From Somniosus microcephalus (lineage: Eukaryota): 64,000 bases of DNA. Numbering within the stretch: position 1 is the first letter of the stretch; every line of letters starts with the position of its first letter. The position numbers and the translations under genes were made by a program. Under the pieces are notes generated by a model that made no database searches, was not told where the DNA came from, and saw nothing but the letters and a program-made list of their open reading frames with translations. Positions 15,191-62,154 of the stretch are shown in pieces. The DNA is taken from assembly GCA_052327205.1 (NCBI GenBank), contig CM126207.1, positions 249,736,001 through 249,800,000 on the forward strand, given 5' to 3'.

Positions 15191-18100
15191 AATGATTTAG
15201 CACTTACCTCGCTAGCCCTATTTCAGAATGAACACAGTGATAACTTATTTCTGATGGTGAAATATCAAAGCCTATTTTTATTATATATACATAAAAGTCC
15301 ATTCACATGATTGCAGACTGCAGAGATGAAGCCTCGCAGCTTTTATGGTCCTCCCAGGCTGAGGATCATGTGAGAGTCATAAATCATGTAGATACCAGGT
15401 GACCCAGGGCCCACTTGAGCCATTATTTTTCAGTCTAAGCGGCAACGGCGAGAAAACGAGCGTAAATCGATGAAACTCGCGGTCGCCAACTCACTTGAAT
15501 GGGGCTGAGCTATGACAATGAACTTTTCATGGTTTTGGCGAAGATATCAGTGGAGTGCCGCACAAGTCCCAGGAAATCATGGTGCAGCGGGTATAATGAC
15601 TGGCAAATGAACACAATGCCATAGTTGCACCTCCAGGGAATTCTTGGTGGAGGCGAGACAAGGAAGCAAACTTTTCAAGGCCCTGCACATGTAATAAACG
15701 TACTACCCAAAAATGAGGAGGAATTTGATTTATATGTCTTAGCCTCTGATTTGTCTCTTGGCATTCCATCTATAAAGAGATGTAGTTAGGATGTATAAAA
15801 TAAACCATAATATTTTCTGGGAGACATTTAAGATGTACTTTAACTGTTGCTCCAGATGAAAAACATGACTGAGATTCTCCAGTAACACAAATTAGGTTAT
15901 GAATGCTTTCAGTGATAAATAACGTTTTCAAAACACACCCTACTACAGCTGGGTTTCATTTTTGAATATTGTAATCATCCCCCCCCCGCCCCTCCACTCT
16001 TCCCCCCGCCCGCCCCCAAGTATACAGACGACTTGATCATCGAACCACATTTGCAAAACAAAAACTCTTCTGGAATAAGACGACTAAAATATAAAATGAT
16101 TCAATCTTTATTCAAAATAAATACAAGTGAAGATGAAGACAAAGTTGCATGATTACACAGATCAGACGAACAATCCATCTTTGTATTTTTACTTACATCT
16201 TTTGTCAAACTAACCTTTATTCACACAAGAGGCTATGACCAGATTAAAGGATCTGCAAAACTCAGAAGTCGACAGAATAAATTCAGTGATCTGTGGTTAT
16301 ATTATTCATTCCTGTTTTCAATTGTGAACATGATGGCAGGTGTTTCATTTGATAATTATTTTCTTTGTTAAAAAATTCTCTGAATTAACATTGGAATTTA
16401 TTTAGTAATGGAAAACATTTCTATTCAATTAAAAATCTTATTTTTGTTAACACAGAAAAACCACTTACTGAACAGTTCATAGCTAATGAAATTGCAGAAC
16501 TAGTCAACGTGGATGTGTTTAAACCAACCTGCTGTTTATTTGTTCATGTTTAGTCACCAAAGCTTCTCAAGCTTTAAAATGTCGATAGCATGGATTTGAA
16601 ATTCGATTCAGAAGTCCCACTATCTGTGCATTTCGAAACATTTTCTTACCAAAAACCTGAAGTGTTTCTCAAATGACACATCTATACAAGTTTTAAAACA
16701 TCACAGTGCTTTTGTTAAATGTCTCACATAAGAGATTTACTTCAATGGGGACCCTGCAGATGTCCCACATGTGTACCTTTAATGTTAGGCATATAGTGGC
16801 GAGGTGTGAGAAAACAGTGCAGTTTCTAATTATCTCATATAATAAAATGTTTAACTTCTCTGCTAATAAAACTTTCTTTATAATAACAAACATATGTTTC
16901 GTATCAACATGACTATAATCTCAACCCAGTCAAGTGTTGGTTCTATTCCTTTGAAAGATAATTTTGGATATTCAAGTGGAAAATAATGAAATTATTTCTC
17001 TCTATATATTTTTCCCCAAACATTTTTCTTGTGTTATATTATTACTTGCTGCCACCTGCCATCATATTTTCTTCTTCATCTGGAAAGGCAGGACAGTCTT
17101 CCCCTACAAGCTTCTCCTTAGATCCAGTAAACTTCACCCATGCTTTGCTTGTATATTCCTACAGGACAGAACTGGTGTTTATAACTGCATCTCCCTTCAG
17201 ATAATTACTATGCCTCCAAAAAACGCTTCATTAAGGAAGAACCCACCCATGAAAGGGATCAATTTTGACCATGATTTGAGGCTTGTGAAAAGAAGTTAGG
17301 ATTCAACAGCGAGAGCTACGAGACTTCCAAACGTGCATTATTTAAATTTACCACACATTCACAACATGGAAATGGAACTTATCCGGGAGGCTAGTGAGCT
17401 CAGACGGAATAGTCCACATGCAAAAATATTTGACTGGTATTTCCACCCGAGCTTTCTCTAGAGCTTGCAGTTGGTCATTTCACAGCACATTCAGCGGAAG
17501 CGATAGCAAGCTGATGGGAAGTGAGTGCAAAATTAATGGTGAATGACAATAAACTGATGGGGGACTCAGAGCAAACTGATGGGCAGTGAGTACCAACTGA
17601 TAGGGAGTGAGTGCAAGCAGAGGAGGGGCAGGATGAGGAGGAGAGTGACCTTCCTACATGACAATGGAGCAGCGCTACTGCTGTTGGAGAAGCCAAGAAT
17701 CCTAATGAAATGGTTCCTCCAGAGCCAGCAATACCTCGGTCCGCACACAGCTGAAAGCGGCAACAGCACCGAGAGTAGCCTAACTATAATAAAAGCAATA
17801 TAAGTGGAGTGTGAGCATCTCCAAAAAAATCACCTAAATAGCAGAACTGACAGAGTCATGGAGAATATAATGTAACTTGGAAGGCTAAGTATATGAGACA
17901 ATTACAAAAAATAAAGTATATAATTAAAGAGAATGAGAGAAAGTCAACAGCTTGTTAAGAGGAATATCTCTATCACGAAATATTTACCTGTTCAACTTTA
18001 CTGTATTGGTGCTTTGGTGCCTTCACTATAAGTACTTCCATGAAAAATAGTTGGCACATACTATGCACAGTAGTTGCAATAGTTAATGATGAAATAGCTG

Positions 18101-52026: not shown

Positions 52027-52771
52027 TACTGCAGGCCTCCCTCCCCTCATTAAAGGGGCAGGGCCTTGCACAGCGCGAACCAGGGCCATGCTGGGCCACC
52101 AGGGTGCAGGGTGCCAGTAAAAGAGCCCGGCACACAAGAAGAGTGCCAGGCTGACGGATCGCGGCTGGCACCCCGCGGCAGGAGGGCAGAGGGGGTAGGT
52201 GCTGGCAGGCAGCCCACAAAAAAATGGCCGCCCGGCACCTCCCCTTTAAATACTACCACCCCGGCCGCAAGTACGCCCTCCTGACCCTGTCGGACATAGC
52301 ATCTGGTGGTACGTCGGGGGGGGGGGGGGGAAACGACCCAAGTTTGCGAGCGGGGTGCTGCGCACGGCGATGACATCATCGCGCGGGGCGTCACCGCCGC
52401 GGCGAACCTCCCGCTGAATTTCGTGGGAGGCGTTAGAGGCGCCACGCCGCGCCTGGGCACTAGTTGCTTTGCACCCCTTCTACACACTGCTGCAAAAATG
52501 ATTTGATAGTGAAATGTGTGTGTTCGTGCCATAAAATTTTCCTGAGCCAATACAAATATTTTTAGAATGCCAGAGTTATATACAAGGTCTAAGGAGAAAA
52601 CAGCTTTTAACAGTTAAGTCAGTTAAGTAAATCCATAGGATTGACCCCCCAAAAAAACAGCAACTAAGGCCATTGTAAACCACTCACCCACCTAAGTCAA
52701 AATTTTCGTAATTATGCATTGTAAATGGTGATGGGGCATAGGACAGCATTCCCCAGACAAAATAATAAACC

Positions 52772-52952
52772 TCCGTGGAGAGAGAAATAGAGTCAACGTT
52801 TCAGGTCGAAACCCTTCCACAGTTCTGTAGAAGGGTTTCGACCCGAAACGTTGACTCTATTTCTCTCTCCACGGATGTAGCCTGGCCTGCTGAGTTTTTC
52901 CAGCATTTTCTGTTGTTATTTCGGATTTCCAGCATCCGCAGTATTTTGCTAT
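52772..52952 (+). mobile_element. Penelope-like element end (inverted partial pLTR) with minimal-hammerhead-like motif
   Basis: 51-bp inverted arms 52772-52822 / 52825-52875; CTGTAGA-A-GGGT-TTCG-ACCC-GAAACGTT; 15-bp TSD CAAAATAATAAACCT (52758-52772, 52953-52967). Confidence 0.8.
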
Positions 52953-53547: not shown

Positions 53548-55039
53548 GGGCTGGATTTTCCCATCTCCCACCCGCACGGTACAGGGGGACCCGGGAGATG
53601 GCAGTAAACCTGGAGGTTCAGGTTTCCCAGCACGCTGTGGAGTTTTAACTACACAGAGTGCATGCGACACAAAGGGGTCAATTTTCAGTGTGCCGTGAGG
53701 CGGGCTTTTAGGCGTGCAGGGGGCTAAAATCCCGAATTCGGGGGTCCCGACACCATCCCGCCCAAAACCCGCCTCCATGTAAGTTTCAAAGGAGGCGGGT
53801 ACCCGCCCCGCACTGGGACCCGCCGACTCGAGGCGGGAAGGGATTAGTGCCAATTAACTGCCTGTTAACAGGTAGTTAACAGGCAGTTTTTAGCCTAATC
53901 CCTATTTTGAAGGTTGTCGTGTGGGATTCCCGACAGCTCCAAACCTCGCCAGGTTAGAGGAGTCGGGCCGTCGGTTTGAAGGACTTGGAGGGGTCGAGAT
54001 GTCAGTGTTCAGGTGAGTGATGGGTGCATGAGTGCAAAGGTAAGTGTGTTTGGTGTGTCTAAAGTGTGTAAAGAAGATTAAATTACCTGTACTTACCTTT
54101 ACAGCCTTCCTTCCTCGAGGCTCCGGGAGTCCACCATTCAGCCGGCACTGAAAGCAGAATGGCCGCGAGCTGTCAAAAGTGACAGCCTGCAGCTTTCAGT
54201 GCCGGCGAGATTTCTAACTGAGTCTGCGTAGAAGGACTCAGGTTAGAAGTAAGACTGTCAGTGTTTCACAGCTTCAAGCAGCTGTGAAACACTGATATTT
54301 CATCTGTCAACACGTCTTGACAGATGAAATTTCAGTCTGTGACGTCACCTGTTGCCGGGTGGCCCTTAATTGGCCTGCTGAGCCCGTTGGGCGGGCTCAA
54401 CAAGGTCAATCAAGTGAAAATCGCGTGGATTAGCCGCATCTCGATGGAGACGGGACTACAACCCCGAAAGTTGTAGTCCCGCCTCCTGCCCGACTTCTGA
54501 ATGAAAATCCAGCCTGTAGGGTGGGTTCCCCGCCCGGAAATCAACTTCCAGTCATGCGGGGATCGCGGACAAGGAGGCCACAGGACCAGGTAGGTGCTGG
54601 GCCCAGGATGGTGGGGGTGGGGGTGTAAGCCTGGGGGCTCCCATCCCCCCGGGAGGGGTCCAATCCCCGACCCCAGGGAGGGTGCAGGCTGCTGGTGGGG
54701 GAGCTTGGGGGACTGGGAGGAAGCACTCCTGCTCCTCCCGGCCCACAAGGATTGCTTCCCGAGGCGGAGGCCGCCTCATTGCAGCTTCTGGGAATTCGAG
54801 CCCCAGGATCCCTAGCCGCCTGCAGTAAAACCTGCAAATCAGATAAGTGGAGGCTTCAGGCCTCATTGTGATATTTAAATTGCCAACCTGCTTCCTGGCA
54901 GCAGGTTGGCTGCTCACCCCCCACCCCCAACCTCCTCCATGGGCGGGTTGGGGTCAGGTTTTACATTTTTACAACTTTCACTTCCCCCCCTCCGCCCATG
55001 CCTCCACCCCTCCCGTTCTTTTCTGAGAAAATTCCAGCC
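53548..55039. mobile_element. Composite Harbinger-like non-autonomous element with probable nested element at 53674-54514
   Basis: Outer TIRs GGGCTGGATTTTC / GAAAATTCCAGCC; inner termini GGGGTCAATTTTCA (53674) / TGAAAATCCAGCC (54514); TSDs not clean. Confidence 0.65.
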
Positions 55040-55242
55040 AATGTGTCTTGAAAGTTGAGTTCTAAACTTATCCTTACATTTTCTTCCATCACCTTTCAGG
55101 TAAAAAAATATCCGCTCAGCAAGAGAATGCCAAGAGACCTGTGCTTCTCTTTTGCTAACCCACTAAGGTTTGTCTTCAAATTACAACAAAAATTAAATCA
55201 ACAGATCTTTTAGCATCCCCAGTTCCCCATAAAAAACACTGA

Positions 55243-55948
55243 GGCCGAGAAATTCAGTGGGCTGCATCACCCGTTAGCGCCTTAGGAGGGCACTTAGTGG
55301 GTTGGACGCCACTGCCCACGCCTCCCGCTAAATTTAGCGGTGCGCTAATGGCGGCGCTAGCCGTTAGCGCTGCGCCGCTACCAATGACGTCATCGGTGTG
55401 CGCAGCGCCCCGCTAACGAAATTTAGTAGCGCCCCCTGCTTTAACGCCAGTCGCTATTTGTGACCGGTTCAGGGGGGCCTACCTGCGGCGGTAGAGACGC
55501 TGAGGTGCGGGCAGCCATTTTTTTTGCTGGCCGCCTGCCAGCACCTCTCCGTGCTGCTGTCCCCGGCCTCCTGCGCCCCCCCCCCCCCCCCCACGGAGTG
55601 CCGGCTGTGTCCCAAGAGCCCGGCACTTCTCCTCGGTGCCGGGCTCTTTTGCCGGCACTCGCGATCGTCGCCCGCGCTGCAGCAGGCCCCTCCCCTTTAA
55701 GAAGGGGAGGAAGGCCTGCAGTACCGCAGCGCGCCGTGCCGCAGCGTGTGGCGCTGCGGCACGTTGCACTGTGATCTTCAGCTGCAGCGGCCCAAGAGGG
55801 ATGCAGGGCACCTTGAGTAGCGCCGCGCTTCCCTCTGGGGCGCTGAAACTGAATTTGCGGCGGGCGGCTGCGACTACTTCCGGGGCGGTACTTCCAGCGC
55901 CCAGGCGAGGCTGGCGCCCCAAACGGGGTGCCACTGAATTTCTAGGCC
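55243..55948. mobile_element. PIF/Harbinger-type MITE, well preserved
   Basis: 18-bp TIRs GGCCGAGAAATTCAGTGG / CCACTGAATTTCTAGGCC (1 mismatch); 3-bp TSD TGA (55240-55242, 55949-55951); CpG-rich. Confidence 0.9.
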
Positions 55949-60607: not shown

Positions 60608-61258
60608 TACAATGGCTCCGATACCATATGCCCGACTACTTGAGACACCTTTCTTAAACATCCATATACACTAATGTTTTGCATTTCCTTTAACTATCCA
60701 ATTGTTCACTTGCTCAAGGAAAAATTTAAATTTGTCAACATGATTTGTCTGCAACAAATCCATGTTGGCTGTCCTTAATTAACCCATGCATTTCTAAATG
60801 TTCGCTAATTTTATCTCAAATTATGGATTCGAATAGCTTGCCCACAACTGATGTTAGACTAACTTACCCAGTTTATTCTTTTCTCCTTTCTTGACAAAAC
60901 TATCTCCAGCCCATTAGCATAATTTGATTAGTTAATGAGGTTTGAAAAATTATAACCAAACCCTCCACTACCTCCTTTCAACAGTCTAGGATACATGCCA
61001 TCAAGGCTTGGTGACTCAACAACCTTGAGGTCTACTAGTTTTTCAGAACCAATTCCTTTCCCACAGCTCTTTCTGACAATTGATTACTATCCTCTTCTGT
61101 ATGCTGACAATCCCACTTCCAACATCATTTGCAAAAACCAATGCAAAATATTTAATATCTCCACTAAACCTTCATCACTGACCAGCCCTACCCTCTCAAG
61201 GCATTATTTTGCTATTTATATACTTATATAAAAGCACTTAGTGTTTCTTTTTATATTC

Positions 61259-62039
61259 CCAGAAATTCGGGTCTCCACGGGTGAGTACGCACGGGGTACT
61301 CGTGTGTGGGCCCGATGGAAGAGCCGGTTTTCTGCATGCACTGCGCATGTGTGGGAAACCGGCACTTCCGTTCCTCTGAACGAAGGGGTTCAGAGGTCGA
61401 ACGCGTGCGCGGGGGAGTCTGCGCGTGCGCTTTGAACTTACATTTTTTTCCTTTTTTTTAAATTTTTTAACAGGTTTCTCCGGGAGGGTAAGTCTTTCGA
61501 ATTTAGAAATGTAAAAAGCAGGCGTAAGGCCTGCTTTTTACAAGGTAAGTGGTCAGTTAATTAAAATTAAAACATTTTTTCCACAGGTTTATTATTTTTA
61601 AATACTTTAAAGCAAGGTAAGTTTATTTTTAGCCCCGTTAGAATATAAAATTATTTTTTTCAAAAATTTAAATTATTGTTTAAAATAGTTATTTAATGTA
61701 ATTTATAATTTATTTAAAAAGTGTGATTTAAAAAAAAAATTATTTGAAGGTTTACTGCTATTTTGGGCCCATAGTATTTATAAGTCTTGACAGGTCTTCC
61801 TGTCAAGACTTATGAATGGGCTTTTCCCTCCTCCGATTGGCTGCCCATGGCCCACGTGATCCCAGGGGACGCATCGAACTAACTGCACCCCTGGGACACG
61901 CAAGCACTGTGCGCCGGCAGCTGGGCCAGGCATCGGATCGGAATTCCACGGGGCCCTGCAGCTCAACTGCCGGCGCGCAAGGTAAGTGCAGGTCGGGGGC
62001 TTGCACCCGCGGGAAGCCCCCAACCCGAATTTCTGGACC
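61259..62039. mobile_element. Harbinger-type MITE with internal hairpins and multiple splice signals
   Basis: TIR CCAGAAATTCGGGT / ACCCGAATTTCTGG(ACC); interrupts the old CR1 reading frame. Confidence 0.8.
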
Positions 62040-62154
62040 ATCTGCTAGCCTTTTTTCATATTCCCTTTTAGCCCTTCTAATCTTCTTCACCTCTCTGCTA
62101 AACTTTCCATATTCCTCATGATTAACTTTAGTATTGTTAGCTCTAACTTTATCA

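Follow-up and report, generated by a model that had tools for sequence, protein, structure and literature searches.

Positions 53674-54515 of the window, meaning the whole 64,000-nucleotide stretch of Somniosus microcephalus DNA that was analysed, are occupied by an 842-bp non-autonomous DNA transposon of the PIF/Harbinger superfamily. The element lies on the forward strand and is assigned to subfamily A1 on the basis of shared boundaries, best matches and placement in a tree. Its ends are sharp and common to most of 30 loci, at a length of ~840 bp, and they carry short, G-rich terminal inverted repeats of 13-14 bp (53674-53687 on the forward strand and 54502-54515 on the reverse strand), which are imperfect in A1 and perfect in the A3 and C consensuses. 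An initial annotation of this DNA had placed a non-autonomous DNA element at 53674-54514; the classification and the start are borne out, but the element reaches one base further, to 54515, where the window copy has a T in place of the family's C. Both ends were detectable in 83 of the 166 copies examined, and 56 of these 83 are flanked by an exact 3-bp target duplication (two of the three bases agree in 70), with no 4-bp or 5-bp duplication in any of them. The family inserts into a palindromic target with an ACAC-WWW-GTGT-like consensus. In the window copy the left half of such a site, ACAC followed by AAA, is present at 53667-53673 on the forward strand, and the target duplication is not intact, its right-hand duplicate being altered. 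Start codons and coding remnants known from longer relatives have been deleted or altered, leaving no coding capacity. A Helitron or other HUH-type element is ruled out by the terminal repeats and the 3-bp duplication.

A first look at the 6.4-Gb genome returned 3,850 candidate copies of the family, the best 40 at ~96% identity, as well as 96,622 candidates for the Harbinger transposase domain. The exact arms of the palindrome H1, described below, occur at 18,082 genome positions, which represent a wider group, and are separated by the same spacer in 45 of the first 50 listed. The window copy itself appears to be inserted in a host element, recognised in the sequence by Harbinger-like inverted ends at 53548-55040, of which no second full copy was present among the loci compared. 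Insertions were also observed exactly at the ends of B copies, one of family A (L023 2330) and one of family M0 (L121 539-544), as would be expected if an element's end and its flank together recreate the preferred target.

Several other features of the neighbourhood deserve mention. A repeat at 52772-52875, continuing to ~52952, contains nested 31-bp and 14-bp inverted pairs with sub-threshold Rfam miRNA scores, and family A has inserted into relatives of it (L009, L019); the core of the repeat seems to resemble the minimal hammerhead motif of Penelope-like elements. The segment 55101-55168 is flanked by acceptor-like and donor-like signals and is a candidate exon, with stops in one frame translated; such an exon would possibly place the element in an intron. 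Further along, positions 55243-55948 show Harbinger-type terminal repeats and several hairpins (folding z -7.1), with only a 52-nt match to family M0, and 61258-62040 is an 89% copy of the non-autonomous element M1, built from the ends of a 4.8-kb autonomous clade, which folds at z -8.8 and has an inverted T(A/G)ACAG pair at 61780-61813. Elsewhere, full-length 4.8-kb Harbinger elements with long subterminal hairpins (L095 3580-8307, L098, L099 and L100) retain an open 386-codon transposase frame that scores 148 bits for DDE_Tnp_4, and copies up to 98% identical indicate that they were recently active.

The hairpin array and its ancestry

The interior of the element is an array of inverted pairs, labelled H1 to H10 from left to right. 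It is preceded by GC-rich inverted pairs in the left subterminal region (53767-53800), whose partners switch among subfamilies. H1 (53839-53903) consists of a perfect palindrome with 14-bp arms and a 5-nt spacer (53856-69/53875-88) inside an outer stem (53839-47/53895-903). On the forward strand, 54009-54104 comprises a pair of splice-donor-like motifs and stem H2 (54036-45/54091-100) and ends in an acceptor-like sequence. H3 is a long hairpin with an inner stem (54141-54206; arms 54141-55/54192-206), and H4 is a bulged hairpin (54212-54248) that is mostly lost in subfamily C. At 54252-54338 lies a three-way junction, in which the closing helix H5 surrounds H6 (54258-73/54280-95, 16 bp) and H7 (54297-310/54317-30, 14 bp). 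A CRE-like 8-bp palindrome with the weak stem H8 follows in the sequence at 54340-54363. H9 (54369-54410) is an inverted CCAAT-like pair around a GC-box hairpin (54379-54399; perfect stem 54379-86/54392-99) with a 3-nt loop that has been repeatedly inverted. The right subterminal hairpin, H10 (54446-54486; perfect stem 54451-62/54470-81), retains its outer GC-rich arms and varies in its inner ones. Motifs at the element ends thus resemble GC boxes, CCAAT boxes, CRE sites and splice donors.

All of the perfect stems listed in the initial annotation are present at the coordinates given there, and they belong to the family consensus. The bulged stem (54212-48), the inner 7-bp stem and the closing helix (54252-57/54333-38) lie in the MFE fold, and the Y-shaped junction is the DNA MFE structure of 54245-54345 (z -9.2; reached by 0 of 200 shuffles). 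The 841-nt stretch as a whole folds far more strongly than shuffled controls, at z -14.4 (+) and -15.9 (-), with none of 20 shuffles reaching either value. Perfect stems of at least 8 bp number nine, against a mean of 0.5 and a maximum of 2 in 60 shuffles. Three flanking and control stretches, for comparison, gave z values of -2.0, 0.3 and 1.0. The stems had been described as unrelated in sequence, which does not hold for all of them, as T(A/G)ACAG recurs in H1, inner H3, H6 and H7. Within the window copy, TTRACAG or its complement occurs six times, each palindrome scoring twice, against 0.23 expected and a maximum of 2 in 500 shuffles; these occurrences sit in the 53856, 54170-86 (inner H3) and 54297 stems, and the family consensus carries the T(A/G)ACAG core in the 54258 (H6) stem too.

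The two halves of the element can be traced to opposite ends of longer relatives, which were drawn, in several lengths, from a systematic 600-kb sample of the genome. A related autonomous element of 4.2 kb, G, encodes DDE_Tnp_4 and Myb_DNA-bind_5 on opposite strands, with Pfam scores in the copies L325 and L320 of 99 bits for the former and 31 and 35 bits, above cut-off, for the latter; the family profile matches both ends of locus L104 (108 and 21 bits). Both proteins are needed in the PIF/Harbinger superfamily and the Myb-like one binds the ends, according to the accessible text of PMC2836001. G is a relative of the element and not its demonstrated parent. A 1.8-kb form, F, keeps the starts of both genes, and alignments show that in the short forms the stretch just preceding the transposase start is joined to the Myb-like gene's first codons and the sequence upstream of them. 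The left half of the element (53674-54206, forward strand) aligns with the end and 5' untranslated region preceding the transposase gene, at identities of 0.56 to B, 0.44 to F and 0.49 to autonomous G, a region with a putative promoter role. The right half (54207-54515, reverse strand) is homologous to the end, upstream region and former first Myb-like codons, as aligned with the right ends of F and G.

Within this right half, H6 formed where the start codon of the Myb-like gene had once lain, and the arms of H7 came together once ~25 nt had been lost. G has neither stem and is therefore not the source of the T(A/G)ACAG pairs. Nested mini-insertions, considered as the origin of each hairpin, are excluded because the stems align to continuous ancestral sequence. 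The single F copy scanned had no Pfam match, and the same was true of two broken copies (two of three proteins). The best 150 DDE_Tnp_4 matches belong to another Harbinger clade, and 30 loci of that clade had no match to family A.

Consensuses were built for B, D and C (lying ~6%, 5% and 1% from consensus, respectively) and for A, which forms a graded series from A0 to A4. Compared with the coding relatives, perfect stems have been gained in the right half: G has 0 there (z +0.6) and F has 3 (z -5), and the fold stands at z -8.7 in B, -13.7 in D, -12 in A and -6 in C. The build-up of stems has not been monotonic, since C, the youngest subfamily, has only 5 perfect stems together with this weaker right-half fold. 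The left end of autonomous G already folds, at z -5. The best C copies (L145 9037-9866, L162-L180; 1,684 candidates) are ~99% identical to one another, which implies that a matching transposase was very recently active. The subfamilies are mosaic, and some of the blocks they have in common could therefore be due to sequence exchange among them; the tree and the divergence estimates disagree on the direction of the A0-A4 series.

Frozen and fluid stems

Parsimony on eight consensuses gives widely different rates of change along the array. Changes per site amount to 0.03 in H1, 0.04 in H7, 0.03 in H9, 0.06 in H8 and 0.16 in H6, as against 0.33 in H10, 0.42 in H5, 0.52 in H4, 0.86 in H3, 0.80 in loops and 0.54 in the remainder; H1, H6, H7, H8 and H9 change 3- to 30-fold less than elsewhere. 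With B added as a ninth consensus, H1 has changed once over 33 nt, the rate elsewhere being 0.92 per site, and H9, without B, shows 1 change in 32 nt. The nearly frozen palindromes are those at 53856, 54258, 54297 and 54369-54410, three of which share the T(A/G)ACAG core. The fluid stems, among them H3, H4 and H5, turn over at the background rate and hold most of the compensatory changes. For instance, H5 is complete in the A series; in D it is shorter and carries a single compensatory swap, and in B and C its pairing is broken. Invariant runs of at least 20 nt number 3 against 0.04 expected, and a 12-nt invariant run lies at 54009-20. Deletions of at least 9 nt remove part of H1 in 30 of 154 copies (A 15/85, B 7/26, C 3/21, D 5/22), and none appears in any subfamily consensus. 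Fixed arms, varying loop letters and constant loop lengths form the pattern that would be expected of spaced binding sites.

Covariation had been proposed as a test of the array, and the result is divided, with an excess that is present when subfamily C is included and not significant when it is left out. Compensatory changes affect 11 of 152 pairs across the consensuses with C, against 2.6-4.1 in two controls; 7 of the 11 depend on C, whose alignment there is uncertain, and without it the figures are 4 against 1.95 (p 0.14). Among 15 real copies, comprising the least diverged of seven subfamily groups and one A0 copy, 14 of 112 pairs have changed on both sides, a count matched by 15 of 500 shuffles; eight of these pairs lie in H3 and none in H7, H8 or H9. 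Moreover, 35 of the 152 pairs are broken in some active lineage. At two pairs a break was followed by repair, and the mismatched state was amplified in whole subfamilies (A-A and G-G in A1).

After insertion, non-CpG rates in stems and unpaired sites are 0.034 and 0.034 in B, 0.028 and 0.028 in D, and 0.0036 and 0.0031 in C; in subfamily A they are 0.015 and 0.022, an estimate blurred by subfamily variants. Equal decay implies that inserted copies are not maintained for the host and that the stems were shaped in mobile lineages.

The window copy, otherwise of A1 type, has at 54149 and 54267 two bases that restore pairing and are characteristic of A2-A4, acquired through either conversion between copies or independent repair. 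The pair-restoring T is present in all of the first 100 listed of 399 matches, and the C in 92 of the first 100 listed of 967. That the two bases are private template-switch repairs is unsupported, as matches and trees show them mostly to mark subfamilies.

Proposed generation and maintenance of the palindromes

A process that generates palindromes, one of the possibilities raised in the initial annotation, is directly supported by inverted loops and by clusters of changes copied from arm to arm. In H9 the 3-nt loop is replaced by its exact reverse complement, with the stems intact, in 175 of 7,012 exact genome matches (2.5%; 4 of the first 100 listed), making the inversion as common as any single-base loop variant. 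Thirty inverted-loop loci span D, A0, A1, A2 and A4 backgrounds. On a tree of 163 copies, the inverted-loop state changes 14 times, compared with 30 times when labels are shuffled; the inverted-loop copies in this tree had been chosen for that state, and several of them are related by descent. It follows that the inversion had many separate origins and that it also spread with clades that were amplified. Among the 429 substitution clusters in 166 copies, nine reproduce the reverse complement of neighbouring sequence over at least 12 nt, against 1.2 when the substituted bases are randomised (maximum 4 in 40 randomisations), and at 10 nt the figures are 12 and 3.0; four of these clusters are the H9 loop inversion itself. 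Loop inversion and multi-base arm correction are both named as signatures of template switching in the accessible text of PMC8794818. Copying of this kind explains compensatory changes without selection.

The process is not, as had been considered, specific to one family. A Harbinger-type terminal motif lies within 500 nt of 12 of the 15 hairpin clusters in the 600-kb sample, and other families fold strongly: two other non-autonomous ones at z -13, of which one also contains T(A/G)ACAG as an inverted pair, and, from another Harbinger clade, six ends of autonomous elements at z -2.8 to -9. The right part of the host element, which does not fold (z -1.2), provides a counter-example to hairpin richness.

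The explanation that we favour, at a probability of roughly 0.6, is that template switching builds palindromes and that selection on mobile master elements keeps a subset of them as candidate protein-binding sites. Template switching during DNA synthesis would build and perfect symmetry in leftover control regions, the switches perhaps occurring during replication or in gap repair after excision. The frozen palindromes would then be sites on double-stranded DNA for host factors or for the element's Myb-like protein, and binding there would raise the chance of mobilisation, while the fluid hairpins and the Y-junction may be by-products. Unbiased arm copying should not lower the per-site rate, and by this reasoning it leaves the frozen class unexplained. 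Counting against this explanation are an excess of compensatory pairs over controls, as selection for structure would also produce, and the slower change of stems than of unpaired sites in subfamily A, together with the weaker array of C, the lack of H6 and H7 in G, the mosaic make-up of the subfamilies and the selection of inverted-loop copies by their label. If it is correct, H1, H6, H7 and H9 are candidates for the internal sequences through which non-autonomous Harbinger elements gain the advantage over their parents.

A bolder idea is that Harbinger non-autonomous elements of this lineage evolve their own transposition enhancers, hairpins made by template switching being selected as DNA structures through competition for transposase, with multi-hairpin arrays arising convergently in unrelated families. 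It is doubtful. On this view a cruciform or gap-repair hairpin would raise copy number, and the hairpins doing so would have come from dead promoter and coding sequence.

Mutation might also act alone, in which case template switching would ratchet leftover promoter symmetry without any selection, and the conserved blocks would reflect exchange between subfamilies. Loop inversions and arm copies are indeed frequent, subfamilies are mosaic, mismatched intermediates have been amplified, and C was amplified despite losing several stems. What makes this improbable is the frozen class. H1 has undergone 1 change where ~30 would be expected, spacer included; its consensuses escape a deletion that is found in about one-fifth of copies; and the arms are nearly invariant, in contrast to the loops between them, which change at 0.80 per site. 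The adjoining Harbinger-like host element, too, has no hairpin excess.

Selection on DNA structure offers a third account, in which cruciforms or gap-repair hairpins aid excision, end pairing or copying, so that pairing is kept and sequence drifts. H3 behaves in this manner, in that a long hairpin has persisted in the same place through 0.86 changes per site, and the two-step break and repair at two pairs, the similar folding of the two strands and the recurrence of strong folding in unrelated non-autonomous families and autonomous ends fit as well. However, the compensatory excess loses significance once C is removed, nearly a quarter of the pairs (35/152) have lost complementarity in one active lineage or another, covariation is missing from the stems under strongest constraint, and template switching yields the same pattern without selection. 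Such an account is given the same low credence as mutation alone.

A structured RNA is unlikely. The initial annotation had proposed a structured ncRNA or small-RNA precursor, and for this to hold, promoters retained at the ends would have to transcribe it and an RNA function would have to keep the stems. Both halves do come from regions upstream of genes, RNA folding is strong, and D, A and C retain splice-donor-like motifs. Yet the halves stem from two different genes and are oriented towards one another, and loop inversion is tolerated in amplified clades. Both strands fold alike, and mismatches show no G-T (G-U) strand bias, with 17 G-T against 13 A-C and 36 of other types. The RNAalifold covariation term is -0.97 kcal/mol, the junction-closing helix is missing from that consensus and broken in the youngest subfamily, and the best-conserved stems barely covary; equal decay of stems and loops points the same way. 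Rfam, searched as the initial annotation had suggested, gave no match inside the element at E up to 1, and its gathering score was unreached in four loci of other subfamilies. Together these observations render a functional RNA quite improbable as the force that keeps the stems.

The splice-donor-like motifs occupy new positions in B, and several occur in M1, although none of these elements has coding capacity. Contigs of presumed RNA runs, from which strand, level and absence are unreadable, cover the element in many divergent short pieces, and no GT..AG joint at the donor and acceptor motifs was seen among 15 of 23 plus 6 joints. Sub-threshold Rfam matches at 52770-52873, 55599-55739 and 55785-55855 sit in other repeats.

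An array that folds at z -14 and shows some compensatory changes thus need not be RNA, a point of relevance to searches for ncRNA in genomes rich in repeats. The family is also a natural data set for the open question of how hairpins and compensatory pairs originate, as it combines thousands of neutrally decaying copies with a dated master series in which break-then-repair intermediates are preserved.

Comparison with known systems

Harbinger3_DR of zebrafish has short subterminal palindromic motifs that are bound by its Myb-like protein. The present family resembles Harbinger3N_DR and Harbinger3_DR in that related autonomous elements encode a DDE transposase and a Myb-like protein, and in that the short derivative consists of two ends joined (PMC2836001, PMC3016246, as far as their accessible text goes). 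It likewise makes a 3-bp duplication in a palindromic target closely like AAACACCWGGTCTTT (accessible text of PMC3016246). It differs in its dense internal palindrome array with frozen and fluid classes, which the accessible parts of those two papers do not describe (PMC2836001, PMC3016246). A description of multi-hairpin vertebrate Harbinger elements was not found in the literature covered, which lay outside Repbase, Dfam and most subscription papers. By this literature comparison, with Repbase and Dfam outside it, the element represents a new family of a known kind.

The rice pair mPing and Ping, the former a Tourist-like MITE, offers a second parallel, being a case of an internal-deletion derivative that outnumbers its parent (accessible text of PMC9921582 and PMC2836001). 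The element described here is about twice as long as mPing. According to the accessible text of PMC9921582, internal sequence alters mPing mobility, in keeping with our main explanation, though in a way tied to GC content rather than to conserved motifs. So far as that text goes, general DNA features are favoured over sequence-specific internal sites, which speaks against our main explanation. Neither 'hairpin' nor 'secondary structure' appears anywhere in that accessible text of PMC9921582.

A parallel in mechanism is with template-switch hairpins, a subject under which PMC10710096 is also listed, and for which the accessible text of PMC8794818 reports the same loop inversions, multi-base arm corrections and stem extension. 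Those cases, in the same text, concern rRNA and miRNA genes, whereas the present one concerns thousands of dispersed DNA copies with no evidence of an RNA product. What is new here is the subfamily ladder, along with a measured frequency of loop inversion.
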